64,000 nt of DNA, taken from NCBI GenBank assembly GCA_040954595.2, contig CM082578.2:1098831-1162830 (forward strand), written 5' to 3'. The DNA is from Balanoglossus misakiensis (taxonomy: Eukaryota > Animalia > Hemichordata). Positions 1,862-47,600 of this stretch are shown piece after piece. How positions within the stretch are numbered: the first letter of the stretch is position 1; each line of letters begins with the position of its first letter. The position numbers and the translations under genes were made by a program. The notes beneath the pieces were generated by a model, which made no database searches, was not told the DNA's origin, and saw only the letters and a list, made by a program, of their open reading frames with translations.

Positions 1862-2273
1862 CTGGAGTGACTAGCAATTTTTGCAAATTGTACTATTAAT
1901 TGAATTCATAATTTAATAATTAGTTTTTTTCAATGAAATATTCAAATCCATACAACCCAAAGATGGCTCCTTCATTATTTCTATGGAAATTTCACAGTTT
2001 ATTCTTTTCTTTCTGCACACTCGCAAACATCTTGAAAATAATCATAGAAAAATATCGAAATATATTGTACTGTGAACAAAACACTAATTTCCTTGAAAAA
2101 AGTTTAAAAAACGGCTACTTTTCGGAAATTGGAAAATGTTTTCTATACTGTTACAGCTACTTCAATTCGGTTCGTTCCTTCAGGATGTGAGAATAATCGC
2201 CACAGGCACAGTCAACGAGCTTGAACTACTCACAGAAACTTAACCACATGGCGAAGACGAGCTCCCAGACCAC

Positions 2274-3146
2274 TTGAGGGAATTGTCAGAAAAATCAGCA
2301 GCCAATCTGACGGAGAAACAGTCCCATGAAATGAAAGAGCTACTAATCGAGTTCCAGGATGTCTTTGCTGCAAATGAATATGACCTGGGGAACTTCACAG
2401 CCCTTGCGCACAGTATCGATACAGGGGACGCGCGACCAGTGAAGCAGAGGATGCGCCGAACCCCACTACGCTTCGCGGGGGAGGAGGAGGCCCACCTCAA
2501 GAAAATGCTGCGGTCAGGGGTAATCCAACCTTCAACATCAGAATGGGCTTCGGCACCAGTATTGGTAAGGAAGAGGGACGGGACAGTCCGCTGGTGCGTC
2601 GACTATCAGTCGCTGAACAATGTGATCGGAAAAGACGTATTCCCCTTGCCGCTGATAGAGGACTGCATGGACACGCTGGCCGGGAACGAGTGGTTCTCGA
2701 AACTAGATGCCAATTCAGCGTACTGGCAAATACAAGTGGACAAAGAGGACCGCAAGAAGACTGCCTTTACCACAAAGTACGGGCTGTATGAATTCGCCCG
2801 TATGCCCTTCGCCCTGTGCAACACCACTGCCACATACTCGCGAGCCATGAATCTGGTGCTGCGTGGGCTGACATGGGAGGTAGTACTAGCATTTTTAGAC
2901 GACATCATGGTACTTGGGGCGGACTTTGCAAACCATCTCCAGAATCTGCGAGACGTGTTCACCCGGATCCGGGAATACAGGTTGAAACTACGCCCCCGCA
3001 AGTGTGAACTGTTTCAGACAGAGGTGGAGTTCCTGGGGCGGATTGTCCGCAAAGGAACCATAGGACTGGACCCGCGTTCCGTTGACGTGGTACGCAACTG
3101 GCCGACACCAAAAAACACCAAGGAGGTGGAACTTTTCGCAGGGTAA
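2274..3146 (+). pseudogene. pol: Gypsy reverse transcriptase (frameshifted at 3' end)
   Basis: SEWASAPVLVRKRDGTVRWCVDY, FSKLDANSAYWQI, KTAFTTKYGLYEFARMPF, AFLDDI, KCELFQTEVEFLG. Confidence 0.95.
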
Positions 3147-3177
3147 GCCAATTAACACCGCTCGTTTATAAAGGATC

Positions 3178-3783
3178 ATGCCAAGTTGGCCGCCCGCTGT
3201 ACGCAGTTACGGAAAAAAGCCTTTCAAGTGGGGCGGAGAGCAACGGCTGGCCTTCGAGGCGCTAAAAGATTGCTTAACATCGGCGCCGGTACTCACGTTA
3301 CCGAACCCAAAAGACCTGTTCACATTGGACACGGACGCATCGGACATTGCCGTGGGAGCGGAACTTCTCCAGGTGCAGGATGGAGAAGAACGAGTGAGCG
3401 CATACGCCAGCTTCGCATTAACACCCGAACAAACAAGGTACTGCACGACCCGAAAAGAACTCCTAGCAGTAGTACGATTTACCCGGTTATTCCGACACTA
3501 CTTGCTGGGGAACCATTTCATAAAACGGACGGACCACAGCAGTCTGGCCTGGCTGCTGAGGTTTAAAGCGCCCCAAGGACAATTGGCCCGGTGGTTGGAA
3601 GAACTTAGCCAGTACAACATGACGGTTCAGCATAGGCCGGGGAACAAACACCTCAACGCGGATGCCCTATCCAGAATTGAACCGCAGGGACACTACCGCC
3701 ACAGCGTTACGCCGGACGAACTTCCCTGCGGCGGATGTGACTATTGCCAACGAGAAATTGGGGAGACTTCGTCACCGGGGTAG
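3178..3783 (+). pseudogene. pol: Gypsy RT connection/RNase H domain
   Basis: FTLDTDASDIAVGAELLQ, YCTTRKELLAVV, RTDHSSLAWL, QLARWLEEL, HRPGNKHLNADALSR. Confidence 0.95.
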
Positions 3784-4022
3784 ACGAAGTAATACCGTTA
3801 GCCTCACAACCATCCAATGACATTAGGCAAGACGTCTGCACGGTAAACTTAGGCAGCGAAGAAGACGAAGCGAGTGACCACCTCGCAGACCCCCCAGAGG
3901 ACCCAGGAGAAGGATTCGATTTCGACGAAATACTAAAGTCAATCGGAATAGACTCCATGGGAGAGGACACCTCCTTCAGTGAAGGTACACAGGCGGAATA
4001 GGAGGACCCCAAGGTATGCACG

Positions 4023-5513
4023 GTGACCAGGAGCAGCTCGCCAGAGACCGACACGCCGTGGCGAGAAACCTCGGAAACGATACACCGGCAACATCAGGAG
4101 GATGCCGATCTACGGCCGATACTGGAATGGCTGGATACTGGTCAACCCCCCGCGGAAAGCGCATTGGAACTACTCAGCACCGCCGCAAAACATGCCTGGA
4201 TAAACCGCGAGATATATTATGTGGACCCGAAGATGCCAGTACTCCGGAGGAAATCCGAGGACGGGGGCGAAGGAAAACTGGTCATCCCCAGAACAATGAT
4301 ATCGGAAGTAATTGAACTGAACCATGCGATACCCTCAGCGGGACATCAGGGCGTGCAACGGACGCTGGCCAGACTCCAAATGAAGTACCACTGGCATCGG
4401 ATGGCAGATGATGTACGCAGCTACGTAGCCTCGTGCCACGACTGCAACAAGCACAAGAAACCACAGCGACATGCGAGGTGCCCTCTGACCCGATACCACG
4501 TGGGATCACCTATGGAAAGGGTACATCTGGACTTCCTTGGACCACTGCCCCGGACACCCCGAAAAAACGAATATATCCTAGTCATGGTCGACCAATTCAC
4601 CAAGTGGGTAGAGTGCATTCCACTGCCTACCCAAACGGCAGAGGCAACCGCTAAGGCAGCTGTAGGGGAATTCTTTTCTCGATTCGGATGGCCATTCGAG
4701 ATATTCACAGATAGAGGCAGTAATTTCGAAAGTCAGCTGTTCCGCGAACAGCCAGATGGAGCGGCAAAACCGGACCCTCATGGATGCAAACAGAACGAGT
4801 GGGACAAATTCGTACCCCAAATCGCCGGAGCCATTCGGACCTCCGTAAACAGAAATACTGGATTCACACCTAATCGCCTTATGCTGGGGCGGGAAGTGAA
4901 CCAACCGGCCGACCTGGTCTTCGGGAAACCAACGCCAGCCCAAGACCATGAAGAATATGTGAGCAGCCTGGGGAGCGCCATCAAAGAAGCCCATGACCTC
5001 GCTCAGGAAAAACTGCAGGTCACCCAGGAAAGAATGAAGCGGGACTACGACTTGAAGGCCCGACTCCGTTCATATGAAGTCGGAGATCCCGTCTACCTTC
5101 TGGACTCAGTGACGGTGAGATGGAAATGTAAAAAACTGAGCCCCCCATGGAAAGGACCAGGAATAGTGATAGCGAAATTATCGCCATATTTGTACCGAGT
5201 GAAACTTCCGAGACGCATCGCCACCGCGAACCACGACAGAATAAGGTTGTGTAGGGAAGCGCAACTGCCCAGCTGGATAGTTAAATTCAAGAGGTCACTG
5301 CCCCTAAAGGGTGGGGATCCTGATCCGCAGGACAAAAACCGGGAACAGACCTACTGTATCTGCCGTGGGCCGGACACAGAGAAGCTGATGGTCCAGTGTG
5401 ACAGCTGTTACGACTGGTTCCACAGCACATGCGTCAATCTCACCCAAAAGCAGGTCAACTCGACTGATCCCTTCCACTGTCCGAACTGCGAGGGGGAGGG
5501 GATCGACGATTAA
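4023..5513 (+). pseudogene. pol: Gypsy integrase (HHCC, partial DDE core, GPY/F-like region) with C-terminal PHD finger
   Basis: H..AGHQG..CHDC zinc finger, VHLDFLGPLP, FTDRGSNFES, PWKGP. The segment normally carrying the catalytic E appears deleted near FREQ|PDG. C-terminus TYCICRGPDTEKLMVQCDSCYDWFHSTCV...FHCPNC is a C4HC3 PHD. Confidence 0.93.
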
Positions 5514-5577
5514 GGGAACACAGGGAAAAGGGGAAAATGCCATCGGGTAGGGCTATGACTCGTCACAGGCGAGGACC

Positions 5578-5617
5578 CACTAACCGTTAATTTTCTTTTT
5601 TTTCTTTTTGTCCCCAG
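5578..5617 (+). promoter_or_regulatory. Putative splice acceptor upstream of the Gypsy extra ORF
   Basis: CACTAAC branch-point consensus (5578-5584), long polypyrimidine tract, CCCCAG ending at 5617, ATG at 5619. Confidence 0.65.
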
Positions 5618-5618
5618 A

Positions 5619-7063
5619 ATGGATTCCAGACAACTCGAATTAGAGGAGATATGCTATCGCTGCGGCCGAGGGAAACTGTTGGACCCCATCAGTGTCATCC
5701 CCCGACTGAGGCAACTTGGTGTAGACGAGGATACAATGTTCCTGATGCTCCGTGAGAACTGTCAAGTAGCCACGGTTCTAGGCGACATAGGATGGATGTC
5801 CACGGTACGGGAGGAGGCCATACATGTATACGGGAAGGAAAAGACCGAAGCCAACCTGCCCGTACCATCCGACGCAGCCATAAAAACCTGCACACTACCT
5901 CGGGAGTTCAATCCAGGCCGCGTACGTGGGGGATTCGTTGGCCATATCTCCCCGCAAGAGCCCACAAGAACCACCACCGCAGCTGACGACCTGGAGGAAA
6001 CTTTGAGCATCTTCCGGGATCCGCAGCTGGAAAAACAGGTACTCGGTGGCGACAAGGACCAGGCGATGGAGGTGTCGGAAGGGCCAGACCCACCCCGCAC
6101 CCGTGTATCACCCCCAATAGCAGTAGCGAGAGACGGGGGAAACCAACGGCTGCTGCAGGAGCCATCACCCCCACGCCAAGAAACGCTGCCGCTGCAGTCA
6201 CTGATCAACCCATTGGAGCTGGAAGCGACGTTGGAGGCGGGGGAATATCTAATCCCCTGGGAACTTCGACGCCACCCCGGCAGCCCTACTAGGTCCAGAT
6301 CCCCAACCCGGTCGCCGCGAACGGAGCGTTCTCGAGAGGAAAGGCGGGACCGCCCACCTTCCCGTGAACGATTATCCTTTTCACGCTGGGGAGATCTCAG
6401 CCCCAGACGTCGATCACCGATCCGGTATCCGACGCTGGAACCGCCCAAAGAAGACGAACGCCGCTGGAGGAGCGCCAGGCCGGCCCGAAGGAGCCCCCTA
6501 TCCTCTGTTCCACATTACTCATCAGGCCCTTCTCCATGTCCGTTCCCGGGATGCCGGAGGTCCACGCGCAAACTGAAGAAACACGCCTTTCAGTGCCACC
6601 TTCCAGTTATTTTTACTGAGAAGCCGGAAGTATTCCGCGAGCGGGACGCGGTGGAGGAGTTAGAGAAACTCACCTATACTGGCTGTGTGGTCCAGGAAAT
6701 GAAATACCCGACCTGCTAGACTTCTTTATCCGCAGGGGCGGACCTGGACGGATCCCTACGGAATCCTTTTGTTCACCGGAGTCCATGGTGATGATGAAGC
6801 GCCTGTGCGTCTTCCAGGGGTGGGAGGTGCCGAACAGGTTCCGACTGAGCTCCCCCACCACACCAGCGATTCTCATCCACTGGCGTGTCCTTAGCATACT
6901 GCTGAGGTGGGTATCCCAATCACGACAGGAAGAATTCCGGGAAATCCGACCTCACCGGAGAACATCATCAATCCGGACACAGCAACCAGAGAGGACGGGG
7001 GCGGAAGCAGTCGCACAGAATCCATCGACGCAGGGGGAGCGAGGACGCGCCAGGGGTTTTTGA
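5619..7063 (+). pseudogene. Extra ORF of the Gypsy element (RS/P-rich, C2H2-like zinc finger), broken into 5619..6719 and 6785..7063
   Basis: 366-aa ORF with an RSP-rich tract and CPFPGCRRSTRKLKKHAFQCH, continued in another frame by GWEVPNRFRLSSPTTPAILIHWRVL; same GC-rich composition as pol. Confidence 0.7.
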
Positions 7064-9199
7064 TGCATTTTTTATCCCCCAAGCGTGCGCAGAGGAGTGC
7101 CGAGTGGAAGACGCGCCCACCACCATAGATGACCTCACTGACTACGATGTTGGTGTCCCCCCCTCCCCCCCCCGCATGTTTAAAGGTTTCTATAGAAAAG
7201 CATTGTTGAGGTTCACAAAACTTTGAAGAAGCTTTGCAACCCTAACTTTGGCCAAAGATTTGAATGTTAAGGTTTCACAAACGTAGTTACAGCTGAGGTT
7301 CAACTAAGACTAGTATAAGAGGCTTCAGCACGCCAAGTCTTGTAGCAAGCTTCAACACAAAGCTTTGTTGCAACATTGTTCCAAGCATTGTCAAAGGTAC
7401 TGCACAATGTGTAGTGCTATATTGTCAGCTGAATGGTTTGAGCCATTTGTCCCTACAACAACAACTGTTAAAGACACACAGCTTGAAATTGTAAAATGTT
7501 GCAAAATCAAACGATCACATCCTTACACCTATTATTAGAACCAGAAGTTGAGTCAAAATTTTCCTACCTAGAAATTTTCTTTCCTATGAAGTGTTTTGCT
7601 TATTGGCATTCATATGGGAGCCTAGACCTATTCCAGCTGAGTTGCCAAAATGGCAATGATGGACAATTCTTCTAATATGCATGATCAAAAATGGCCGCCA
7701 AATACCTTCTCTAAAATAAAACTTGGCCCTTTTTTCTCAAAATTATGTGTAATATCTAAAATTTCAGGATTTGCATCCATATTGGTTATGTATTGCAAGT
7801 ATGGCAGTGTTTGGCAACTTTTCTATTTTGCATAATCAAAAATGGCCGCCAATCACCACTAAAAGTGAAATTTTGCCATGTTTCCCAAAATGATGTGCAA
7901 TATCGTATTTTCAGGATTAGCACATTCATATGGGTACCTTTAACAATACAACTGTGTTGCAAATTTGGCAGTGTTACCGTACTAATCATGAAGCAAGGAA
8001 GTGCAACCTCTGTATCCCAAATATATGTCTATCCCCACTGATAGGAGTCACAAAGAGCCAGCCCCTCTGCATCATCCTGTTCCTCAATCTCACGATGGGA
8101 ATCCTTTTCAGAATTCCAACCTCAAAACATCCAGGGATTCACCATCATTCACCACACCCTCGTCAGTATCCACCATGTTTAGATCCAATGCCTGAACATG
8201 TTGTCTCTTTATCTATGGATTGCGTTAAAGGACAGTGGGAGTTTCATCTCCTTTTTTTGCAATTTTGACCATTTTTATCTGGTGCATAATGCTAGAGTAC
8301 ATATCATCCATACAGGATGATGCATGTACAGTGATGGGAAATGTATCAATCCACTCCTGCACTAGATTTGCATACAGTGCCATACCTTTTAGGGCTATTT
8401 TCTTGACCCTTTTGATAGTCTGCTGGCCAAAAGTGGCTGGCCAAAGTGGCCAGCAGAGACATTCTTCCAATACCCTTCATAGTGCCAACAGACAAGGCTT
8501 GGATATACAACCTGTGTTGCTTGTAAGGCACACATCTCCAATTGGTACATTGGGCCAATTATACTGTACATGTACAGCTAGGAAAAAAATATACTTCATC
8601 ATAGTTTGCATGGTCAGCAGCTTCAATAACTTGTTGCCTTTTCTTACTGAACATTTAGACTTATAAAGAAGTATAACAAGAATAAAGTTGTCCAATTAGT
8701 GTTGGCAGGGGGGTGGGGGATGTGTTCTCCCATACAAAGGTGTATAGGTATGTAGTCTTTAAGTAAAACTTGGGGTAAATGACCAGAAAATTTGACTTAT
8801 AATACAAATAGGTCGGATTTTGGGCATTTACACGTGTTGATGTTATCGACTGGGGCGACAGACTACCATCCGAAAAATTTTGAAGTACCCCCACCCCCCC
8901 TCGGGTGCCGGCCAGTGGGATGGAGGTGATAGAAACTGTTGCAGATACAATAGAGGCCTACAACCTGAAAACCTTCTGGCTTTAACCGAAGACTTGCCAT
9001 TAAAGATACCTATAGGCCCCTATATGCTGCTCCCACATACACTCCCAGTCCTAAACCTTGCATCTGATTTGTGGTGCAGATGAAGAATTAAGATTGGCTT
9101 GACAATTAGCACACTTAATTGCCTGTTATGAGATATAATACATACAATCATGGGACAAGAATGGCAAAAATAAAAGTTAAATTATCCAGCAGGTGTTTG

Positions 9200-9430
9200 A
9201 ATTATGCAAATTAGAGCAGTTGTCTAATATTGCCATGTCAACCATGTTGAAATTGTTTTAGGTACCCATGTTAATGGAAACCCTGCAAATTCGATATTAC
9301 ACACCATTTAAGACAAATATGGGAAATTAACATGTTAGAGAAATTTTGCGGCCATTTTGGATTATGCAAATTAGAACAGTTGTCTAATATTGCCATGTCA
9401 ACCATGTTGAAATTGTTTTAGGTACCCAGG
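9200..9430. repeat. 160-bp tandem repeat, ~1.5 copies (left-arm counterpart of 39830-40480)
   Basis: ATTATGCAAATTAGA.CAGTTGTCTAATATTGCCATG at ~9201 and 9361. Confidence 0.8.
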
Positions 9431-20534: not shown

Positions 20535-22325
20535 ACATCCTGTGAGTGTGAAGTCTATGAACACTGGCCATGCATTTCAATTCAAGGACAAAATGAATGC
20601 GCAATATTTCGTTTTATCGAGAGTAATGTGCAGTGATTAAATTTGCTAGGGCTCTCTTAGCAGATTTGGAGTTAGTCATTTTGGTAGAAACTTTTCGAGA
20701 TGGGAAATCTTTGGTCATCTAACCAAGTTATTTGTATTTTTGTTATATAAGACAGAGTCATTTCTATATCATAGATGCAAGTTTAATTTATAACATGAAT
20801 TTGAATAAAATATTTTTTTTAAATATCACCACATGAATTTGAATAAAATATTTTTTTTAAATATCACCAGATTGAAATCTTTGGAAGTCTGCACTTAGAG
20901 GGATGGCATGGCAGTTTTCCACTGTTCATATTACAAAGAATTTGGCGTCACGTGTTGATTTCATGAGTGTTCGAGTGTTGCTCTTCCCAGCCTCGTACCC
21001 ACAATCCTCTGATACTTACACTTACGTCAGTTCTATAGCCGCCGACCCACTAGATTCTCCTTATGAATTGCCCAAATTATTTTTTGGTGTAGTTTTGATA
21101 GTTGGTGCACGGAAACTTTTGATCGATTCACGAAATTCAAAATATGTTACATCACAAACCTCATAAAATGGAGGCTAGAGTAGCCTGTTTGTTTTCAGGT
21201 AATTTTACAATTACCTCAATTACCTTTTTTCGAGGGAGGGGGTTAAGAAAACATACAGATTGAAATAACAAGGAAGTGGTATATCAAACCGAAACCTTAT
21301 CTCAATCGTGATTCTAGAGTGTTTCCATGTCATGTGACATCCACAAAAATGTGGTATAATCTTGAAAAGAGTCCCGATTTCCCAAACTGGTTTTGCGAAT
21401 GTACTTCACTTTGGAGCAATGCATGAGTACATTCGTAGAAAGATATTGCTCCACTATTTACTGACACTCCTCTTGTACTGCAAATATTACTGCATTCTGT
21501 CAGGGCAAGACAAAAGACACAGCAGAACTGCCAGAATTAAAACAGACAACTGGCAATTTCAATAAAACATGTAATAACAAATATATGTAACATTGAATGA
21601 GGTGTCCATACAGCTTGGTCATTTAAAGACCTCCAGTCATTGTGACAATGCATAAATATTTATGTACACCCACAAGCGTTTTAGCCATAGCGGCAGGCCC
21701 TACTTAGTTGGAGGAAATAAATAACAAAGCAACAGCCATTTTCTTCACGTTCCATTGCGTGATATGGCGAGACTTTGCAAGATCAACATGTGCGCGCCCA
21801 TGCGAATGCATGGCCATCGGTGAAAAACATCACTGAATATAGCCGTTTCCGATATTTTTGCGAGTTCGTACTCGAGAAATATGCTTTTTTATCGCATAAA
21901 CTGTAATTTTTTGGAGTTTATATGGATCTTGCCGCGTGATTTGGAAGACATTTGGATCATGACGCAGGTACGTTTGCAATCGACATGTAAACAATGGCGA
22001 GTGAACAGCATCGAATCCCGTTTTTGTGAACTGTAATTTACAGCTAAGATAACATCGAAAATCGAATTATATTTTAATCAAACCGATTTTTATGTGTTCG
22101 TTGTCGAATATTTTGTGTTTTGAGTGTGATGATTTTGTCGGGGTGTTTTTTCCTTGCTTTGGGTTTTTTTTTTTTTGAACGGCATATGTTGTGTGGTTCG
22201 ATGCTTCGATGACCCCTTAAGCTGACCGTGCCCATGGTTACTGTATTGTTTACGTGTACACTGGCGCCAAATTTGATCGAACTACGTTGTCGTCTGCACA
22301 TTTGTCGGGTGCTGCAGCCAGTACG

Positions 22326-25300
22326 ATGACCGGGCGGAAATCTCTCGAGTTCCACAATAACATATTGCTGAATAGATGTCGGATTTGCAGCCGTAAATTT
22401 GCAGAGAAGCCATTTCTGTGCGCAAATATTGGAGACGCTTTAGGTGAATGTTTTGGAATAGATATTTCAACGGATGACCCTGGCATTCACCCAACCCATT
22501 TCTGTAGTAACTGCAAGCGGCTTATAACATCTATTACAAAGGCAAAAGAAACAGGTAAACAGTACAATCATGGGGTACAGTTAACTGGTTGGAAAAAAAC
22601 ATCCGAGAATTGGTGAATGCAGTGTGTGTACTCTTTGCAAAAGTGAACGAAAGCGGAAAGCAGCAAAAAACCGGGGAAGACCTCCAATGACACAAACCAA
22701 AAAACTTGATGGAGACCAAGGACATATACAATCAGAAAACAGTATCCTTGCTGTACAGCAGAAAGCTGGCAAGAAGCTAAGGTCTGCATTAAACTTGTCA
22801 AGGTCACGCTTTTCCTCTGCGAGTCAAGATTTTGAATGTCCAGTTTGCCGAGATGTTGTTGACGAGCCAGTTCAACTTCTGTGTAGTGGGCCCCATGTTT
22901 TTTGTTCTACTTGTTTATGTAAGTGGTTTGAAGAATCAACCACATGCCCCATCTGTCGCCTACGTATTATGCCAGGTGATATTGTCATTGTCCCATTAGT
23001 ATTGTCAAATATGCTGTCGTCTCTAAATATTGTGTGTGACATTGCAAATGCTGGTTGTTCAGAAGTTGTGCCACTACAAGACCTTTGCTCTCACACAAAT
23101 CAATGTGCCTTCAAAACTATCGCCAAGGAACATAATTATGCCTCACCATGCCCCTTCAACATGCGTGTCAACAAGGGACAGGTCAGTATTGATAATCCCA
23201 GTCCCCAACAATCACAAATAAATGAAGAGATTGGCAAACCTGAAGTAACCCCTGTTCAAGCCGCTAAAACGTTACTGCAGACATCAGCCGATATCCACAC
23301 TCTGCCAATGTTTGAACAACTCGCCACAACTATTGTCAAGAAGAAGCTGGAATTTGAATCAAGTGGTTTAATTAAATTCAAAACAGGTGGTCAAGTGAGT
23401 ATACTTCTTCCTTTATTCTTGTCTTAAAAATAATTCACCCTTGAGTATTTACTTTTGATTTGACTAGGGGGAACAATTATTGATTTTGTTAGTTATAACC
23501 GTACTGCTACATCAGTGTAATATAACTTAAATTGATGCGTAGACGATACTTGTAGAAACTTAAGATATTTTTTGTACTTGCAGCCAATTATGCTGTCCAA
23601 AATTCGGAAGCCAAGAAAGGAAAGTTCTGAGTGTTCAAAGCAAACTCTGGTCTTAAGATCAAAATGCTTATCTGAAGTGAGGCACCAAGTAAGCGGTGGT
23701 GGTAAATCAGCACACATTCAGACAGGAAATGAAATCCAAAGGATGAAGAAGGAGGAAAAAGAATCCCTGCTATCTTCTCTCGGCCTCAGTCCAGATATTC
23801 CACCTGGTGCTGGACTTCTCTTAAAGAGTGATGTTGGGGTCACCTGGTCAACCATGCGGAAAATAAGAAGGTAAGTTGTTAGGGCCCAAGCGCACACGTC
23901 CTTGTTATGTCATGAGATAATACACCCGATAGAAAATTCTGTTTCTTCTCATTCATACTGTGCATATATAATTCGAGATCAGCGCTTGGGCCCGACAATG
24001 CTGCTTGCAGCTTTAATTTCTATCTGTTCTTTATGCAATAATTGTCATGTTTTATTGATGTTTTAACAACAATATGATATATACCTATTAGCAATTACAA
24101 TAGCTGTCTGAGATATTCTGCATGATTAACTAAAAATTATCACATTTTATTATAATCTCTATGCTTAAAGAATGAGGTTTTATGTTGTTAAATTTCAAAC
24201 TTCTTAAACTGTCACCTAGCTGTGCTACATTAATCACTTAGGTCACTGATTGTAGGTTTCATCAAATATGAAGTTTCATTTCAAATGCGGATGGCTAAGA
24301 ATGTGGAATATTCGACTTGAAGGAGAAAACAAAGACCGTGAGAGAATGAAGTCACTTGAGATTCAGCTCCAAATGAAGAACCTACCCTTCACATTTACAG
24401 TAAATGGTACGGGTAGTGGTAAACTTAGTGAAATACGGCTGGCACCATGTGTAGCTGTATCTAATCTTGTTGAAACAGTAATAGGTAGACTTGATACCCT
24501 AGACAGGTAAGATTTGTTTTGTTTTACTGCTATTGACTTTATAGATAGTTGATTGTGTGTTTCATAACTGGCTGGCTTTGTACAATAGCAGCTTGCCTTT
24601 TAAGACTTGTATTTCTATCTCCTTATCACTGTGGTGAGTTTTCACAAATTTTTCTTGTTGAATAGGAAAACATGCATTAGCACACCTTAATTTTTTTTTT
24701 CATTGTAATATGTAAGGTCACATGTATCGCCTGGAGGTACATCCTTGGTAAAGCTGCATGGTTTTGATTTAAGGGTTGAGCCAGTTTTTCTCTCTTTAGA
24801 CTACAGAAACTGACCTGGCATGATGGTCTTATTCCATCTTCTGAAGTCTGGGTAAAGGTTGGAGGTGACCATGGTGGTGGTTCCATGAAATGGGCATTTG
24901 AGATAATGAATGTGGATCACCTCAACAGCATCAACAACACTGTGTGTTGGAGTGTTTTTGAAGCTCCGGATAAATTGACCAACCTAAACACTGCCATGAA
25001 GTTAAACAGTGGGCAAGTTGACTCACTAAATGGTCTAAGGTGGAAGTAAGCATTAATCATAGTACATGTATCTCTGTTAGCAAAAAGAGAGAGACTGACA
25101 CAACAGACAAATGGAACTGAAGGAAGACAGACACAAAGAGACTGAAATTAAAATAGAACACAATTGGATACACTGACAAACAGATCAAAGTGAAACAAAG
25201 AGACGGGGGCAGAAAGAAAAGCCTGGGATGTAAAATGAGGGGACAGACAGATAGAAAATAAGGTAGAAAGGTAACATTGATACTCATTTGTTTTTATGTA

Positions 25301-27754
25301 TTTATTTTTTGTCCACAGAGATGCACAAGTTCTTGTTTGGCTTGCAGGTGACTATGAATTTCTGGTGAAGATGTATGGATTGTCTGGTCCAAGTGGTATG
25401 TGCTGCATGCTGATTCTTTTGATTGTAACATGTTTCTAAATATTTGCATGTCATTTTTTTTAATAGAATGTGTCGGCAGTCTTTTTTCCTTGTTTCATCA
25501 ACAGGACGATACTTTGCCTGTGGTGTCTGACCACAAAAGAGCAAGCAAAGCTACCACCAGAAGAGCGGCCGGATATTCCACCAAGAACACTAGAGTCAAT
25601 CAGAGATGCACACAATAATTTTGTCAGTGCAGGGAAGGTCCTTACTCAAGCTAAAGAGTATTACAATTGCGTCAGGGATCAAATGTTTAGAATTCCACTG
25701 TGTAGGGTATGTTCTTCATAGATGTATCAATTTAATTTTTCTCTATCTTCATTTCAGATAAAAACAAGAAGTCATAATTAATGTGTTATGCTTAATTTCT
25801 CTCATAGGTTTCGATTCCAGTTTTGCACATCTCCCTGGGCATATTTCAGAGGCTCTTTCGTCTCCTGCAGAATTCTTGTCATCTACTTGATGCCGAAATC
25901 TTCACTCGTTTAGTGGGGGCGGGGGAGGAAATAGATGTGCCAGTCATGAAACCTGCCCACTTTGATGAATATGTCAGTCACATTTCGAAGATATCTCACC
26001 TCAATTCAGAGATTAATGAAATACATGTTGAGTATGATTTACTGACATCCCACATTGAAGCTGCCTTCACTGATACTAGTGATGATGATAGTGATGATGA
26101 GGACTGGCCACCAACACTTGGACAAGTAAAACATATGGAACGTAAAAGAAAGAAACTCTCTGATATTGCAGACAAAAAGGTGAATGCATTATCATATTTG
26201 GTACTGATTTATAAAAAAAAATGTGATTTGTCTTCTTTTCAGGTATAACATGACTAATTTTTCATTTGAATGTAATCATTGGGTGTGTTTAACTTTTAGG
26301 CTGCAGAAATTGTAATATTGCAGAAAAAGCTTCCCCATCAAGCTGGATACTTGCATAGGGGACTTGAAGTAGCACTTGCTTCTATCAATGTCTATTTGCA
26401 AGCCTACCATAGTCAGTCATTCATAGGCAATCATGTAAACCGATGCTGCAAGGTCTGTGTAAGAATAATTGTTATGGTTACTTAATTGCCATGCATGAAG
26501 TTGTTGAAGTTTGTTTGCCCTAATTGTGTAATAAATTGTACTGAAAGTTTATATATAGCCAAGTTCCCTTGGACATTTTATCTTTATTTTTCATTTTTCT
26601 GTTAGTTTTTTTTTATTTTTAGGTTGGATGTTTAACAATATTTTTCTAGTTGGTGAGTAACCGAAGGTTGAATTAATAAATACATTAATCAAATTTTAAT
26701 TCACAGAACATTTATAACATTCTTTGATTTTAGTTAAATGTAAGTGTTTAGTATTTGATATAGTTAATCAGTTACAGTCTTGAAATACAGGCTTAATTCA
26801 TAGTGAAAAAAACAAACATTATACTTGCCCTGTAAATGAAAAGATTAATGATTGGACTGCCTATTTTTCAGCCACAAAATGTGAATCTACTATGCAACAG
26901 TGTTGTAAATGTGACTGAGCAGGTATGCCCAGAGTTGCTCCCAAAAGCCCGGAAAATAGTACACAAACACCAACCACTGTTCACGGAGTTTGCAAACTGC
27001 CACAACAAGTATTCCCACAGCAGAAAATTGACACACATTGAAATTGAAGAATTGGGTAAGTACAGCATGCATGCAGGCACCCCCACCCCCTCTTCCACTT
27101 GCACACAGCAAGCAGGGAATAAGTCAGTCACCAAACTTGAGCCCACTGTCAAGTGTGAATCTCCCGGTATCAGGTGTGAACAAAAGTCAAGGTTCACCAA
27201 CATGTATATATAGCTTGCGTAAAGTTACAATAAATCAGACTTGAATTTGGTATCAACACCACGCGCATCTCATCTCACTTCCCGGCCATTCGCCCCTCTC
27301 CACCACCCATACCTTTCCCAAAGTGTATGCCGTACAATACATAATGCTTATCATTTATGGCACATCACTATTGTAACATTGAATAACTAAATTATAACTT
27401 TGAAGTAAAAAATATTGACATTTCCAAATATAATTTATTTCAGATACTGCCGTATCCAGGTTCATGAACCTGTATAGGACACATTTTCCAGAGGAAAGTG
27501 TGTTTCCAAAATTGCACATGCTTGAGTGTCACATAATGGAGAAGATCAGATTATTTAAACGAGGGCTAGGGTTCTTCGGCGAGCAGGGGATAGAGTCAAT
27601 CCACCACGCCTTTAACCAGGCTTCAGTGAGCTATGCGTGTATGCCTGGTGACCGCCTGAACAAACTTGAGCAACTAGTGAAAGACCACCATATTAGGACT
27701 AGCCCGACACATACAAAACCTGAAATCAAGTCAAGAGGCCCCTATAAAAAGTAA
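22326..27754 (+). pseudogene. RAG1-like/Chapaev transposase, 10 exons, three apparent lesions
   Basis: Exons: 22326-23394, 23584-23870, 24291-24506, 24800-25045, 25319-25395, 25505-25706, 25808-26179, 26300-26452, 26872-27055, 27444-27754. Motifs: H-x7-CRIC...D-x4-H-x4-CxxC...W..H..CxxC; RING CPVC..C..HVFCSTC..CPIC; ZFA-like C..C..H...C; TGGQP..RKPRK; KVGGDHGGGSMK; LAGDYEFLVKMYGLSG; CLWC; LHISLG; QAYHSQSFIGNH; PKLHML; GFFGEQGIESIH. Confidence 0.92.
23876..23998. repeat. Small inverted-repeat element in transposase intron 2
   Basis: TTGTTAGGGCCCAAGCGC ... GCGCTTGGGCCCGACAA. Confidence 0.7.
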
Positions 27755-29344
27755 ATGTAAATGCGAATGTAAATAGATCACAATGCAAGATTTAAAGTAT
27801 TTTTGTGATTGTTACCATGCCAATTTTGTACATATATATTTGATGTGTAAAATGTTAATAATAAAAACTCTTTAACCTGCATATTGCCTCTTGTGTGAAT
27901 AATTGTGTGACTTTCAGATAATGTACCAAGTACTTGAAAATTTAGCGAGTAACTAGACTGAATGTACATGTTCCCCTCACTACTAGCCAACCTGTACCCG
28001 CCTTTACAACCAGAACAATGGTGTGTTAAGTTTGTGAACATAATAAAAGCAAACATTCAGGCCAGGTACGTGGTGATTGTAAATGATTGGCTTCAAATGG
28101 TCATTTTTATTCACTGTAAGATCAAAATAGAAATACAAATAATATAGTGTTCGATTACAGTGAAATTCATCGGTAGTCTATACATGAAAGTGCATTTTAA
28201 GTGATGTTTAAATCATGCAAACAAGGCGCATATAATGCCCTCCCCATTACAGGGAATGCGCACAAAGATAGTTGTTGAGGGCGCACTTACATAAATGGCG
28301 GCCATTTTGAATCTAACTAAGTTACTATGGGGCAAACGCTTGTGCACCATGTTAAAAATTAGTTCAGGCATACCTTATACATGTATGTTTTTGACTGACC
28401 ATATCCTCAGCACGCCCTTTTTTTTCAAAAAGACTATCATTATTCTCTGCCAGGTAGAGAGTTGCCGCTTTCTTGTTAACAATAATATACTATTATAACA
28501 TTGCATAGATTCCAGTTGGTTTCTGTCCATATCTCACAAACTGTGGTGTGCATACTGTTGAAATGACCTCAAGAAGAAAATGCCAAATGGAAAAATATTT
28601 GACATACTAACCTATATGATAATGTTATACAGTACATTATATTTAACGGTTCCAATCCAATGTTGAGAACTAAGAAAACAATTTGAGCAGAATTCATTTA
28701 AAATTAATTGCAGTTCCGTTTCACCGCATTTCATAGGATGCTGGCTAAAATTCATAGTATGGTGGATTACCTGTTATGCATTTCTTTCCCTATTTCGTCT
28801 GGCAGATTTGAGTTTGACAAGCTGTCATTTTCCTTTCAGCTCCGCAAAATTGATGGATTTACTTTGACAGCACACAGACTGTCCATTTGTCATCGGAGAT
28901 ACAAGCAGCATCAGGTGCTGAACAGCTTGCAGCAGTGTTGGAAAAGAGTACACCACACTAACTTGCAAGAGTGCTTTGGCCCTTTCTTCACACTGTCCGA
29001 AACTTGTTGTGTTACATCATTGCTTAATGAATAAGAAATACACAGGTATTTAGCGTTCCATTCAATACCTACAATAGATAAAAGGGTGTCGGTCTGTATG
29101 CGACAATCTTCAATGTTCTTATGAGCACAAGGCTTTATTCAGGGAACGTTTTACAGTAAGAATTATATGATATAAACTGAATAAGTTTGTTGTCTGTCAA
29201 CTCTTCTGTCTTTGTCTTACCGATACGGTTCTAACCGCGAACACTGAGGCTTCTCTGCTCGTACACAGTATAAATCAATGGATGATAAAATGCGCCCTCT
29301 TTTGGTGAACTCTTCCTACCGCCCGACTTTCTACCTTACATTAA

Positions 29345-37370: not shown

Positions 37371-39829
37371 TGCTACCCAATATGGGTAAGTAGGTAAAAA
37401 GTCACCCTAGGCCATTTGAAATTTTGCTGAAAAAATCTCGTCTCTTACATATGTACATTTGGTAAAAGGGAAATTTTAATCACGGAGTAGAACATATTCA
37501 TAAAAAATATTTGAGGGAAAGAAGGAAGTTTTTCATAGCTTTGGTGCTTCAAATAGTAGAGAGGTTCCCTTGTTATCCTTAGACTCAAACTCAGAGTTTC
37601 CAATCTTACAGTATTTTCATGATATTACTTTCCATCTTAGATTTGTTCATCTAAACAAACTGACTGATAGGTATACATGAACATTTTATTGACTAATGAA
37701 TGTGCCTGTATGTTGCAATTTAAAGAAGTCAGATATTAAACGAGCGCCACACCTGTTTTAATCAGCCTCCATATGGAGGGTACACATCGCAGAGAGATGA
37801 CAAACCCCATGCAAATTCAAGTAATATGGCTCAATGGTGCTGATTTTAAAGGATAGGTGGATGATTTGAAAAATGTTATTGTGGAAAAAGATGTGTAAAA
37901 TTTGGCAGCTTGTGAGGCTTTAATTGTAAAATCTTTGAAATGTGTTTGACTCTTTAGGTCCAATTTTGTATATGTCAATATACCATTGGGACCAATGTGA
38001 AATTGTTCTAAACTCAGAAACTCAAGAAGGTACTGGTCAGATTGCTTTAGAAATTGGTGTGTATTTATGTTATTGAGACTTTATACAGATTTTGTTTTTC
38101 ATTTTTGAAGTATATTTTTGGGGTGATTTTGGTCGTCATATACTCAGAAACCTCTACCCACATTTTTTTTAAAATTTGGTTTGCATGTTCTTAGGTGTGA
38201 TTTTATGACAATTTAACAAACCCAGTGGTGGAAGTGACAATATTGTTTTTTTGTTGTTGGCAATTTCTGCCATTTTTGTCTGATTGCTTTGCAATTTAGT
38301 TAGCAGTTTCTAGGGAATTCTTACTGTGGTGCACAAAATTCACAAAGGTGATTTACTATCCTCATGCGCTTTGTTGAACTGGCTCCCTGTTGCAAAACAG
38401 ACATTACAACACTCTTTGAATTGAATTCATAGCTACCAATTTATCGGGGGTGTAGCACCTTTTTTATGCCTAAAACTTTGATCGAGAACTTCAAATTAAA
38501 TGCAACCCTCCAAATATTTGCAATATTTCAGGTAAAATGATATAATTTTAAAGCATAAATTTTGATGTATTCATAATCATTAAGAGAAACACATTTTGAA
38601 AATAGAATATTAATCACACTAGCAGTCATAATACTTTTGAATCATCACTAAAGAACATATAGAAAAATTAAACAGGTTTTAATTATTTATATTTGAATGC
38701 AAAGCGTAAATTCCCTTGTGCCATGGAATTGACAATCTGCAACTGGTGGGGTCCTTCTGCCAGTAAAAAGCATCAGATAAATTCTGCATGCTCATCACCG
38801 AGGCAATTTAGGTGTACTTTTGTACTTTGAGAACTGTCGGTTTTCGCAACTGAAACTCTGTTCACAGGACAGAGGAAAAACTAGAATGACAACAGCTATG
38901 TAAGCTAACAAAAGGAACACAGAGCATAGTTCTCCATACTCACATTTTAATGCAATAATTTTTGCTGAAACTGGGGCGTCCGTGGGCAGGCAAAGGCAGT
39001 TCTAACTCGACTTGCAAATAAGGCCCATGTCTCTTGTTCGCTGAGATTGTCTGGTTCTAATAATAGCTGTAAGAACTTGATCATTGACCGAACTGTTGGT
39101 TCAATTTTGCAACATTTTATGATTTCAAGCCATGCAATATTTGCAACTCAGTTTCAACTTTGGTTGGAGGGATGATGATGAAGCCATTTCACTGACAAAA
39201 TAGCGCTACTGACTGATGTCAATGTTTGTTTACAGTCAAATGCATTGCCCTTATAAAAATACATGTGAGAAATTTCTTATGTGTATGATACACACTTTTG
39301 TGCATGACTGCAAACTCTGTTACAGTTGTGAAATTCTAAGGGTTGAATTCATTGGGTAGAATTCATGTTTTTTGGATTCTTAAACAACCAGTCACGAAAG
39401 CTAAGTGGTTACCTCAGAGAAACTGTGTTAAATTTGGTCATCAATTGCTTTAAATCATACAAGACATTCCCAGAGCTAAAGTTACTGCAGCAGTCAGTTT
39501 CAACTCAGCTTGCAAATTGGGATCATGTCTTGTGTTCATCGAGACTGTCTGTAGTCCAGTTGACAGTCCTATGGGGTCAATGATGAACCTACAAATGTTC
39601 TTTCCAATGAAATTGTTATAAATCTAATATTCAGGATTTGCATTCATACCTTAAACAATATAACTGTATTGCAAATATGGCAACTCTTCTAAGTTACATT
39701 GGAACACCTTCTCGCCACTGTTTGTGCCAAAATGGTGAATAAGCTTTCATTTTCAAGCCTTAACATAGGCACCCAAAACAAGACAACAGCATTGCAAATA
39801 TGGCATTTTTTGTTCAACTCTTCTCATTT

Positions 39830-40480
39830 GCATAGTCCAAAATGGCCGCCAAACTCCTCTAACATGTAAATTTCCTATGGTCGTCTTAAATAGCGTGTAG
39901 TATCGCATTTGAAGGGTTTTCATCAATATGGGTACCTAAAACAATTTCAACGTGGTTGACATTGCAATGTTAGACAGCTGTTCTAATTTGCATAATCTAG
40001 AATGGCCGACAAACTTCTCTAACATGTAAATTTACTATGGTTGTCTTTAATAGTGTGTAATATCGCATTTGCAGGGTTTTCATCAATATGGGTACCTAAA
40101 ACAATTTCAACGTCGTTGACATGGCAATATTAGACAGCTGTTCTAATTTGCATAATCCAAAATGGCCACCAAACTCTTCTTAAATGTAAATTTCCCTGTT
40201 TTGTCTTATATGGTGCCTAAAATCGCATTTGCAGGGTTTTCATCAATATGGGTAACTAAAACAATTTCAGCGTGGTTGACATGGCAATATTAGACAACTG
40301 TTCTAATTTGCATAATCCAAAATGGCCGACAAACTTCTCTAACATGTAAATTTCCCTGGTTTGTCTTATATGGTGTGTAATATCGCATTTTCACGGTTTT
40401 AATTAATATGGGTACCTAAAACAATTTCAACGTGGTTGACATGGCAATATTAGACAACTGTTCTAATTTGCATAATTCGA
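39830..40480. repeat. 160-bp tandem repeat, about 4 copies
   Basis: AATGGCC..CAAACT at 39841, 40001, 40161 and 40321. Confidence 0.92.
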
Positions 40481-41665: not shown

Positions 41666-44600
41666 TAGCTCTGCATGGCCTGGTTAATCAATGTTGACGC
41701 AAAGGTTGACCCCACCAAACACTCAAAATTGATGGGCACGACACTGGCCACTAGCTCTGCATGGCCTGGTTAATCGATGTTGACGCAAAGGTTGACCCCA
41801 CCAAACACTCAAAATTGATGGGCACGACACTGGCCACTAGCTCTGCATGGCCTGGTTAATCGATGTTGACGCAAAGGTTGACCCCACCAAACACTCAAAA
41901 TTGATGGGCACGACACTGGCCACTAGCTCTGCATGGCCTGGTTAATCGATGTTGACGCAAAGGTTGACCCCACCAAACACTCAAAATTGATGGGCACGAC
42001 ACTGGCCACTAGCTCTGCATGGCCTGGTTAATCGATGTTGACGCAAAGGTTGACCCCACCAAACACTCAAAATTGATGGGCACGACACTGGCCACTAGCT
42101 CTGCATGGCCTGGTTAATCGATGTTGACGCAAAGGTTGACCCCACCAAACACTCAAAATTGATGGGCACGACACTGGCCACTAGCTCTGCATGGCCTGGT
42201 TAATCGATGTTGACGCAAAGGTTGACCCCACCAAACACTCAAAATTGATGAGCACGACACTGGCCACTAGCTCTGCATGGCCTGGTTAATCAATGTCTAC
42301 GCAAAGGCTGACCCCACCAAACACTCAAAATTGATGGGCACGACACTGGCCACTAGCTCTGCATGGCCTGGTTAATCAATGTCTACGCAAAGGCTGACCC
42401 CACCAAACACTCAAAATTGATGGGCACGACACTGGCCACTAGCTCTGCATGGCCTGGTTAATCAATGTCGACGCAAAGGCTGACCCCACCAAACACTCAA
42501 AATTGATGGGCACGACACTGGCCACTAGCTCTGCATGGCCTGGTTAATCAATGTCGACGCAAAGGCTGACCCCACCAAACACTCAAAATTGATGGGCACG
42601 ACACTGGCCACTAGCTCTGCATGGCCTGGTTAATCGATGTTGACGCAAAGGCTGACCCCACCAAACACTCAAAATTGATGGGCACGACACTGGCCACTAG
42701 CTCTGCATGGCCTGGTTAATCGATGTTGACGCAAAGGCTGACCCCACCAAACACTCAAAATTGATGGGCACGACACTGGCCACTAGCTCTGCATGGCCTG
42801 GTTAATCGATGTTGACGCAAAGGCTGACCCCACCAAACACTCAAAATTGATGGGCACGACACTGGCCACTAGCTCTGCATGGCCTGGTTAATCGATGTTG
42901 ACGCAAAGGCTGACCCCACCAAACACTCAAAATTGATGGGCACGACACTGGCCACTAGCTCTGCATGGCCTGGTTAATCAATGTTGACGCAAAGGCTGAC
43001 CCCACCAAACACTCAAAATTGATGGGCACGACACTGGCCACTAGCTCTGCATGGCCTGGTTAATCAATGTTGACGCAAAGGCTGACCCCACCAAACACTC
43101 AAAATTGATGGGCACGACACTGGCCACTAGCTCTGCATGGCCTGGTTAATCAATGTTGACGCAAAGGCTGACCCCACCAAACACTCAAAATTGATGGGCA
43201 CGACACTGGCCACTAGCTCTGCATGGCCTGGTTAATCAATGTTGACGCAAAGGCTGACCCCACCAAACACTCAAAATTGATGGGCACGACACTGGCCACT
43301 AGCTCTGCATGGCCTGGTTAATCAATGTTGACGCAAAGGCTGACCCCACCAAACACTCAAAATTGATGGGCACGACACTGGCCACTAGCTCTGCATGGCC
43401 TGGTTAATCGATGTTGACGCAAAGGCTGACCCCACCAAACACTCAAAATTGATGGGCACGACACTGGCCACTAGCTCTGCATGGCCTGGTTAATCGATGT
43501 TGACGCAAAGGCTGACCCCACCAAACACTCAAAATTGATGGGCACGACACTGGCCACTAGCTCTGCATGGCCTGGTTAATCGATGTTGACGCAAAGGCTG
43601 ACCCCACCAAACACTCAAAATTGATGGGCACGACACTGGCCACTAGCTCTGCATGGCCTGGTTAATCGATGTTGACGCAAAGGCTGACCCCACCAAACAC
43701 TCAAAATTGATGGGCACGACACTGGCCACTAGCTCTGCATGGCCTGGTTAATCAATGTTGACGCAAAGGCTGACCCCACCAAACACTCAAAATTGATGGG
43801 CACGACACTGGCCACTAGCTCTGCATGGCCTGGTTAATCAATGTTGACGCAAAGGCTGACCCCACCAAACACTCAAAATTGATGGGCACGACACTGGCCA
43901 CTAGCTCTGCATGGCCTGGTTAATCAATGTTGACGCAAAGGCTGACCCCACCAAACACTCAAAATTGATGGGCACGACACTGGCCACTAGCTCTGCATGG
44001 CCTGGTTAATCAATGTTGACGCAAAGGCTGACCCCACCAAACACTCAAAATTGATGGGCACGACACTGGCCACTAGCTCTGCATGGCCTGGTTAATCAAT
44101 GTTGACGCAAAGGCTGACCCCACCAAACACTCAAAATTGATGGGCACGACACTGGCCACTAGCTCTGCATGGCCTGGTTAATCAATGTTGACGCAAAGGC
44201 TGACCCCACCAAACACTCAAAATTGATGGGCACGACACTGGCCACTAGCTCTGCATGGCCTGGTTAATCGATGTTGACGCAAAGGCTGACCCCACCAAAC
44301 ACTCAAAATTGATGGGCACGACACTGGCCACTAGCTCTGCATGGCCTGGTTAATCGATGTTGACGCAAAGGCTGACCCCACCAAACACTCAAAATTGATG
44401 GGCACGACACTGGCCACTAGCTCTGCATGGCCTGGTTAATCGATGTTGACGCAAAGGCTGACCCCACCAAACACTCAAAATTGATGGGCACGACACTGGC
44501 CACTAGCTCTGCATGGCCTGGTTAATCAATGTTGACGCAAAGGCTGACCCCACCAAACACTCAAAATTGATGGGCACGACACTGGCCACTAGCTCTGCAT

Positions 44601-47600
44601 GGCCTGGTTAATCAATGTTGACGCAAAGGCTGACCCCACCAAACACTCAAAATTGATGGGCACGACACTGGCCACTAGCTCTGCATGGCCTGGTTAATCG
44701 ATGTTGACGCAAAGGCTGACCCCACCAAACACTCAAAATTGATGGGCACGACACTGGCCACTAGCTCTGCATGGCCTGGTTAATCGATGTTGACGCAAAG
44801 GCTGACCCCACCAAACACTCAAAATTGATGGGCACGACACTGGCCACTAGCTCTGCATGGCCTGGTTAATCGATGTTGACGCAAAGGCTGACCCCACCAA
44901 ACACTCAAAATTGATGGGCACGACACTGGCCACTAGCTCTGCATGGCCTGGTTAATCGATGTTGACGCAAAGGCTGACCCCACCAAACACTCAAAATTGA
45001 TGGGCACGACACTGGCCACTAGCTCTGCATGGCCTGGTTAATCGATGTTGACGCAAAGGCTGACCCCACCAAACACTCAAAATTGATGGGCACGACACTG
45101 GCCACTAGCTCTGCATGGCCTGGTTAATCGATGTTGACGCAAAGGCTGACCCCACCAAACACTCAAAATTGATGGGCACGACACTGGCCACTAGCTCTGC
45201 ATGGCCTGGTTAATCGATGTTGACGCAAAGGCTGACCCCACCAAACACTCAAAATTGATGGGCACGACACTGGCCACTAGCTCTGCATGGCCTGGTTAAT
45301 CGATGTTGACGCAAAGGCTGACCCCACCAAACACTCAAAATTGATGGGCACGACACTGGCCACTAGCTCTGCATGGCCTGGTTAATCGATGTTGACGCAA
45401 AGGCTGACCCCACCAAACACTCAAAATTGATGGGCACGACACTGGCCACTAGCTCTGCATGGCCTGGTTAATCGATGTTGACGCAAAGGCTGACCCCACC
45501 AAACACTCAAAATTGATGGGCACGACACTGGCCACTAGCTCTTCATGGCCTGGTTAATCGATGTTGACGCAAAGGCTGACCCCACCAAACACTCAAAATT
45601 GATGGGCACGACACTGGCCACTAGCTCTGCATGGCCTGGTTAATCGATGTTGACGCAAAGGCTGACCCCACCAAACACTCAAAATTGATGGGCACGACAC
45701 TGGCCACTAGCTCTGCATGGCCTGGTTAATCGATGTTGACGCAAAGGCTGACCCCACCAAACACTCAAAATTGATGGGCACGACACTGGCCACTAGCTCT
45801 GCATGGCCTGGTTAATCGATGTTGACGCAAAGGCTGACCCCACCAAACACTCAAAATTGATGGGCACGACACTGGCCACTAGCTCTGCATGGCCTGGTTA
45901 ATCGATGTTGACGCAAAGGCTGACCCCACCAAACACTCAAAATTGATGGGCACGACACTGGCCACTAGCTCTGCATGGCCTGGTTAATCGATGTTGACGC
46001 AAAGGCTGACCCCACCAAACACTCAAAATTGATGGGCACGACACTGGCCACTAGCTCTGCATGGCCTGGTTAATCGATGTTGACGCAAAGGCTGACCCCA
46101 CCAAACACTCAAAATTGATGGGCACGACACTGGCCACTAGCTCTGCATGGCCTGGTTAATCGATGTTGACGCAAAGGCTGACCCCACCAAACACTCAAAA
46201 TTGATGGGCACGACACTGGCCACTAGCTCTGCATGGCCTGGTTAATCGATGTTGACGCAAAGGCTGACCCCACCAAACACTCAAAATTGATGGGCACGAC
46301 ACTGGCCACTAGCTCTGCATGGCCTGGTTAATCGATGTTGACGCAAAGGCTGACCCCACCAAACACTCAAAATTGATGGGCACGACACTGGCCACTAGCT
46401 CTGCATGGCCTGGTTAATCGATGTTGACGCAAAGGCTGACCCCACCAAACACTCAAAATTGATGGGCACGACACTGGCCACTAGCTCTGCATGGCCTGGT
46501 TAATCGATGTTGACGCAAAGGCTGACCCCACCAAACACTCAAAATTGATGGGCACGACACTGGCCACTAGCTCTGCATGGCCTGGTTAATCGATGTTGAC
46601 GCAAAGGCTGACCCCACCAAACACTCAAAATTGATGGGCACGACACTGGCCACTAGCTCTGCATGGCCTGGTTAATCGATGTTGACGCAAAGGCTGACCC
46701 CACCAAACACTCAAAATTGATGGGCACGACACTGGCCACTAGCTCTGCATGGCCTGGTTAATCGATGTTGACGCAAAGGCTGACCCCACCAAACACTCAA
46801 AATTGATGGGCACGACACTGGCCACTAGCTCTGCATGGCCTGGTTAATCGATGTTGACGCAAAGGCTGACCCCACCAAACACTCAAAATTGATGGGCACG
46901 ACACTGGCCACTAGCTCTGCATGGCCTGGTTAATCGATGTTGACGCAAAGGCTGACCCCACCAAACACTCAAAATTGATGGGCACGACACTGGCCACTAG
47001 CTCTGCATGGCCTGGTTAATCGATGTTGACGCAAAGGCTGACCCCACCAAACACTCAAAATTGATGGGCACGACACTGGCCACTAGCTCTGCATGGCCTG
47101 GTTAATCGATGTTGACGCAAAGGCTGACCCCACCAAACACTCAAAATTGATGGGCACGACACTGGCCACTAGCTCTGCATGGCCTGGTTAATCAATGTTG
47201 ACGCAAAGGCTGACCCCACCAAACACTCAAAATTGATGGGCACGACACTGGCCACTAGCTCTGCATGGCCTGGTTAATCAATGTTGACGCAAAGGCTGAC
47301 CCCACCAAACACTCAAAATTGATGGGCACGACACTGGCCACTAGCTCTGCATGGCCTGGTTAATCGATGTTGACGCAAAGGCTGACCCCACCAAACACTC
47401 AAAATTGATGGGCACGACACTGGCCACTAGCTCTTCATGGCCTGGTTAATCGATGTTGACGCAAAGGCTGACCCCACCAAACACTCAAAATTGATGGGCA
47501 CGACACTGGCCACTAGCTCTGCATGGCCTGGTTAATCGATGTTGACGCAAAGGCTGACCCCACCAAACACTCAAAATTGATGGGCACGACACTGGCCACT

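Follow-up and report, generated by a model that had tools for sequence, protein, structure and literature searches.

At the level of sequence, the ends of the transposon at 21671–28344 of the window, the 64-kb (64,000-nucleotide) stretch of Balanoglossus misakiensis DNA analysed here, are confirmed to be asymmetric by more than chance, since divergent relatives carry the same second motif in the same pair of registers. The element is a 6.7-kb RING-type Chapaev (CMC) cut-and-paste transposon and not a Transib or RAG1-like (RAGL) element.

At the left terminus CACAAGC begins at 21671, and TACTTAGTT starts at end-position 31 (21701–21709, plus strand), the "long" register 23 bp past the heptamer, with GGA closing the unit at 21712. 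At the right terminus, read as the reverse complement from 28344, AACTTAGTT starts at position 22 (28315–28323, minus strand), which gives the "short" register with a 14-bp spacer in the unit 28312–28344. Common to both ends are GTTT at positions 8–11 and CCATAG at positions 15–20, and the left terminal inverted repeat (TIR; 21671–21690, plus strand), made up of the terminal block and CCATAG, is identical to the right TIR (28325–28344, minus strand) at 17 of the first 20 bases. A more distal GCCATTT is found at end-position 65 on the left (21735–21741, plus strand) and at 46 on the right (28293–28299, minus strand, half of a near-palindrome), that is 57 and 38 bp from the heptamer. Both the spacings of the second motif and those of the distal GCCATTT are as a sequence-only reading had given them. 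Its description of the heptamer as RSS-like holds in part: the termini do read CACAAGC, but what is conserved at the termini is the 11-bp block CAC-NNNN-GTTT, and since positions 4–7 differ between families, only the CAC is RSS-heptamer-like. Nor is the second motif an A-tract nonamer. Within the 64 kb, CACAAGCGTTT occurs once per strand and ACTTAGTT three times, at both element ends and at 40591. A 160-bp tandem repeat of about four copies at 39815–40476 contains CAAAATGGCC as at the right end of the element, and inverted copies related to this repeat lie near 9172–9428. Elsewhere in the window are a very homogeneous 86-bp tandem array (41666–49835; 95 copies, 99% matches) and, as judged by eye, long open frames that look like a Gypsy-type retroelement pol region (2244–6716) and minus-strand frames resembling a LINE endonuclease region (52347–53881).

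The boundaries were read from contigs of two studies, X1 and X2 from one sample and X3/X4 from the other, which join 21666 to 28345 with four ambiguous letters. Because these empty-site contigs share four letters at the joint, the element spans 21671–28344 between 4-bp target-site duplications (TSDs) CACC at 21667–21670 and 28345–28348; as the flank belongs to a high-copy repeat, these empty sites could be paralogues. An estimate of copy number from read depth was discarded, the junction contig with the same flank giving 236 against approximately 270–330 inside the element and the flank itself being high-copy; depth is in any case no measure of copy number.

The transposase gene has ten exons, all on the plus strand, encoding about 1,038 amino acids. 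Exon 1 (22326–23394) encodes the Chapa/NZD finger (PF12560, E 1.5e-6), an RGRPP linker, a RING (E 5.8e-8) and a further zinc finger. The AT-hook-like RGRPP, located between the Chapa finger and the RING (window 22600–23394, read-through residues 115–119) and represented by GRP in the profile consensus, is a possible extra DNA contact. Exon 2 (23584–23870) encodes a three-helix region beginning RKPR, which is NBD-like with a weak fold match in isolation, followed by the start of the core, and intron 2 harbours a small MITE-like repeat with 12-bp inverted ends (23882–23993) that has very high depth in X1/X2. Exon 3 lies at 24291–24506. The first catalytic D, in KVGGDHGGG, is in exon 4 (24800–25045; Pfam DUF1280, E 1.7e-10), the second, in AGDYE, in exon 5 (25319–25395), and the CxxC in exon 6 (25505–25706). 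Exons 7–9 (25808–26179, 26300–26452 and 26872–27055) encode the helical insertion domain, and exon 10 (27444–27754) encodes HxxxxH, GEQGIES with its E aligned to RAG1 E962, a short basic tail and the stop; the window transposase has no CCGHC-type tail. The window copy has three defects in all. Two of them are not found in the main X1/X2 contigs: an additional A in the run 22593–22599 of exon 1, seen in the window copy only, and a GG acceptor for exon 3 (24289) where the X1/X2 contigs have AG. The third is a 1-bp frame break in the T run 25513–25515 of exon 6, which does not figure among the 12 listed of 39 indel rows and for which no read support was seen. X1/X2 also hold a diverged, indel-rich second transposase copy of about 90% identity (at 26284–26599 and 25994–26299). 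The element had been claimed to lack RAG2, and this is borne out between the TIRs, where there is neither room nor frame for a RAG2-like gene: approximately 650 and 590 bp lie outside the transposase gene, introns are at most 420 bp and no minus-strand stop-free frame within the element exceeds 121 codons.

The class was set by TSD, termini and domain architecture, the homologue tree containing no named reference. The 4-bp TSD from the empty-site contigs falls within the 3–4 bp of Chapaev, and the termini are of the 5′-CAC...GTG-3′ type by which Chapaev is defined (PMC4079192). Likewise the N-terminal Chapa finger, matching RAG1 NZD 21wb at E 1.7e-12, is followed by a RING as in two Chapaev subgroups (PMC4411706, PMC1131882), and the core motifs GGDHG, AGDYE, CLWC, HMLECH and GEQGIE correspond to the DDE core with C(2)C and H(3-4)H (PMC12730594). 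Among 21 elements the TSD was 4 bp in 15 and absent in six, with none of 3 or 5 bp, in a tally whose elements had been chosen partly on a 4-bp TSD. Exon 4 as query brought 740 relatives, and the closest named ones were uncharacterised proteins from Ptychodera, Branchiostoma, Antedon and Sycon, with 25–40% identity over long alignments. The homologue, profile and structure-cluster searches returned no named Chapaev sequence; the profile search gave four matches, none of them so named, a word-seeded search with exon 10 found no homologue, and none of 12 pattern matches in viral contigs was confirmed.

It is very improbable that the element is instead a RAGL or Transib transposon after loss of RAG2, with ends that are true RSS homologues. 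Such descent would agree with the CAC termini, with the profile of 34 homologues matching mouse RAG1 residues 101–379 at E 4.5e-22, and with RAG1, BbRAG1L and HzTransib as top structural matches. Against it, the same profile scores below 3 bits over the RAG1 core, the core identity to RAG1 is 11–15% by structural alignment of the homologue P0039 where RAGL cores exceed 30%, as does that of TransibSU (PMC4411706), and the exons match DUF1280 with no RAG1 core Pfam match. The TSD is 4 bp and not the 5 bp described for RAG, ProtoRAG and HzTransib; some Transibs are described as deviating from the canonical 5 bp (bioRxiv 2026.08.26.747230). A Chapa finger and RING combined with a distant core is, moreover, the architecture described for Chapaev (PMC4411706, bioRxiv 2026.01.24.700457).

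Conservation of the second motif was examined in relatives from a metagenome scan, in which 80 loci were kept from 128 confirmed stretches. Ten families were delimited by their terminal repeats, eight of them with a 4-bp TSD, which was partly a selection criterion; many TIR candidates met on the way were chance pairs and were discarded. A Gibbs search of the 20 ends of these families, with the window excluded, gave a motif whose core is CAYTTAG and which falls at two registers only, in 18 of the ends, with an information of 9.79 against 5.68–6.50 in 12 shuffles that were run with fewer restarts. On this family matrix the window sites fall exactly on the long register and one base beyond the short one, with weak scores of 1.4 and 1.9 bits. 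A held-out set of 14 further ends was picked by the terminal 12 bp alone, ends with a terminal score below 13 and duplicates of training families being excluded. Their best site was at the two registers in nine of 14, a count that includes the internal site L036_L, and the maximum in 2000 shuffles was six. Several of these ends are relatives of training families; among the seven more distant ones, five match (L018, L043, L044, L050 and L071) and two miss (L025 and L032). Terminal-like control sites far from any transposase match were at the registers in 11 of 65 cases. Five strong control sites resemble ends of further Chapaev copies, two of them bounding another element with transposase and TSD, and with these five real ends set aside the controls were at the registers in 6/60 against 12.5% expected.

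The tally of two-ended elements comprises 14, the window included, of which L005 was picked up by its inner motif; no TSD flanks L001, L005, L029 or L070. A 23–24 bp site is present on exactly one end in 14/14, a 12–14 bp site on the opposite end in 11/14, so that in 11 elements the two bipartite ends differ in spacer length by about one turn, and no element has both ends long or both short. The three exceptions are L016 and L038, with no matching short site, and L070, which is 16/24; offsets between the registers range from 8 to 12 bp. The L042 family is exactly 12/23, six of seven left ends being at 12 (one lacks the motif) and seven of eight right ends at 23 (the eighth at 22). In the X1/X2 sample, two diverged right ends that are flanked by other sequence align gap-free with the window over 28308–28344. 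Neither spacer nor motif thus varied freely among the elements compared, and the claimed offset of nearly one turn between the two ends of a transposon without RAG2 is kept across divergent relatives.

We give almost no credence to coincidence as the source of the second motif, or to its neutral origin through a single 9-bp indel in a TIR that was formerly longer. Taken alone the window ends do align with a single 9-bp gap, and the weak matrix scores of their sites point the same way, but the registers are the same in families whose spacer identity is at background, and the control sites do not exceed expectation. The Gibbs motif, the held-out ends and the two-ended tally already largely refute it.

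Seven of the 14 elements belong to one set of closely related families in one assembly (L057b counted by its end sequences), and since many are related, the independent lineages number about six, five of which have the short and the long site. Core identity among five deep lineages is 31–47%, L005 being a long separate branch. Their long ends are identical at 0.65 over positions 1–11, 0.28 over positions 12–27 and 0.56 over positions 28–37. With the spacer at 28% against 65% in the terminal block and 56% in the motif, it is the length of the spacer and not its sequence that is conserved. The long end is on the left in the window element, L001 and L005 and on the right in the others, a change of polarity between lineages that is expected if only the short/long pair matters; as a weakly supported midpoint root (0.52) puts all three on the same side, one swap may suffice. 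The motif is CAYTTAG and not an A-rich nonamer, and A-rich variants are confined to the short ends of L025, L016 and L038. The left end of the divergent L025 (66–95), whose right end is outside the contig, has ACAAAAAGT exactly 12 bp past the heptamer, which matches the common Ig nonamer as quoted in PMC8355894; the A-rich stretches of L016 and L038 have roughly the same position. Nine left ends (L016, L038, L042, L047, L055, L073, L032, L043 and L050) have TTCCGG at positions 51–56, possibly a promoter element.

A RAG1-like core fold with a helical region collinear with the nonamer-binding domain (NBD) is predicted for the Chapaev transposase. The AlphaFold model of P0039 (pLDDT 83.6) has RAG1 chains, BbRAG1L and HzTransib as best structural matches, and its residues 362–1026 align to mouse RAG1 391–1008 with Z 27.6 and an rmsd of 7.8 over 516 residues, or 3.5–3.9 over about 455 residues when the NBD is left out. 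The collinear alignment places a three-helix region at the position of the RAG1 NBD, and RAG1 401–489 is matched, weakly and in collinear order, by the homologue profile as well. Exon 2 of the window is predicted to fold like this region of P0039, and the K of its RKPR aligns to RAG1 residue 391; RKPR would then be the counterpart of the RAG1 GRPR motif, and it is poorly kept in homologues. The isolated NBD-like exon model matches the RAG1 NBD at Z 3.0, level with unrelated chains, so that the NBD assignment rests on position and collinearity. No significant match to the isolated model was returned by Foldseek (best RAG match E 1.8) or VIA, none to profile A2 in the PDB at 1e-15, and an Atlas structure search gave unnamed clusters and RAG1-type leads only. 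Dimer prediction for the region, in which the alignment was not used, scored 0.03 against a mark of 0.32, which speaks neither for nor against a dimer.

We lean slightly towards a transposase that reads both second motifs through a RAG1-style NBD-like dimer favouring a short/long pair, with no RAG2 involved. Each catalytic core would grip one CAC-NNNN-GTTT block and cut next to CAC, while the NBD-like region would bind the CAYTTAG motif. A single NBD-like dimer could bridge both ends by tilting, so that one short and one long end would fit best, and integration with a 4-bp stagger would yield the TSD. The model is the RAG NBD dimer, described as enforcing 12/23 by pivoting, and the registers of the Chapaev motif match the RSS 12/23 distances. 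A CCGHC tail, which could have offered the TR2 clamp as an alternative, is missing from the transposase. From the layout of its ends we infer a paired-end rule in the window element. Counting against the NBD-like read-out are the weak fold match in isolation, the motif CAYTTAG in place of an A-tract and the poorly kept RKPR; against the pairing count the three of 14 elements lacking a 12–14 bp site, the range of offsets and the relatedness of many elements. Biochemical validation of the Chapa domain is described as lacking (bioRxiv 2026.01.24.700457), and no biochemical test of any Chapaev transposase was found in the literature searched.

The asymmetry may also be real and selected without coupling of the 12/23 type, the motif being read by a host factor or by another part of the transposase, such as its Chapa finger or RGRP linker, and the unequal ends serving ordered assembly, and this is a real possibility even though we would not favour it. 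It would agree with the weak isolated NBD match and with a short site that is less conserved: L016 and L038 have it in degenerate form, whereas none of the 14 elements lacks the long site. RAG1 without RAG2 is described as losing the 12/23 preference (PMC4840297), which speaks for such a lack of coupling and against the NBD-like dimer, and Hermes, described as binding its two ends unequally, has asymmetric ends without a one-of-each rule. Harder to accommodate are the same motif on both ends with an offset near one turn in 11/14 elements, the swaps of polarity between lineages, and the collinearity of the NBD-position region in the full P0039 model. As for the NBD-like dimer, the broader proposal built on it is rather unlikely: that Chapaev transposases impose a genuine paired-end rule of the 12/23 type without RAG2, the one-turn design predating the split of Chapaev from Transib/RAG and being ancestral to the RAG1-type protein alone, with the symmetric Transib and ProtoRAG ends derived.

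Asymmetric Transib families have 12/23-like ends, and a RAG2-less 12/23 layout is therefore already in print for some Transibs (PMC1131882, PMC8355894, PMC9435367), as are asymmetric ends for RAGL-A, AanRAGL and ProtoRAG (the last in PMC8289069). No paper on end asymmetry in Chapaev was found, nor is it mentioned in the accessible text of PMC3014272 and bioRxiv 2026.08.26.747230; it could stand in Repbase reports or supplementary TIR alignments. Chapaev has so far been treated as relevant only for the N-terminal fingers of RAG1. Conserved 12–14/23–24 ends place the short/long design in a clade outside Transib/RAGL, and judged from the ends alone the arrangement of short and long ends known from V(D)J recombination is probably more widespread than described. 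The origin of the 12/23 rule is debated, with RAG2 (PMC4840297), asymmetric Transib ends (PMC8355894) and RAGL-A ends (bioRxiv 2023.08.20.553239) all implicated, and Chapaev offers a system of one protein and no RAG2, with a nearly intact gene, where this origin can be tested directly.

Among known systems, amphioxus ProtoRAG likewise has bipartite asymmetric ends and is described as preferring the heterologous pair (PMC8289069). It differs from the window element in its 27/31 spacers, the TR5 motif GCCATCTTG, RAG2L and a CTT clamp. A ProtoRAG-like distal motif had been proposed for the window, and this comparison fails: TR5 lies at 27/31 bp where the window GCCATTT is offset by 19 bp, and GCCATTT is not conserved in other Chapaev families, GCCAT[CT]TT occurring in 1/36 Chapaev ends and GCCAT in 2/36, both the window's own. 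The window GCCATTT resembles a YY1-type host site. Transib5, Transib2_AG, TransibN1-3_AG and the Subgroup I Transibs are RAG2-less with 12/23-like ends (PMC1131882, PMC9435367), but have no Chapa or RING and an A-tract nonamer, and Chapaev is in a separate clade. Ptychodera PflRAGL-A and Aureococcus AanRAGL likewise combine a heptamer, an adjacent conserved block and an asymmetric spacer, of 10 bp in PflRAGL-A and 4/13 bp in AanRAGL (PMC9435367); unlike the window element, both are described as encoding RAG2L and having 5-bp TSDs, and PflRAG1L-A has GRPR/K and a CCGHC tail. The RING-bearing Chapaev subgroups of CMC/CMCT (PMC4411706, PMC4079192) have the same CAC..GTG termini, 4-bp TSD and single gene, with a RING after the Chapa finger and a DDE core that contains C(2)C and H(3-4)H, although a conserved bipartite short/long end structure like that of the window element is not mentioned in the accessible parts of these descriptions. 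Compared with RAG1/RAG2 and the 12RSS/23RSS, Chapaev lacks RAG2 and, as set out above, differs in TSD length and core identity, and its ends have CAYTTAG in place of the A-tract nonamer and a conserved GTTT at positions 8–11, but they share CAC at the cut end and a second motif at 12–14 and 23–24 bp, and the Chapaev homologue profile and model together are collinear with RAG1 in domain order and predicted fold from the NZD to the C-terminus.
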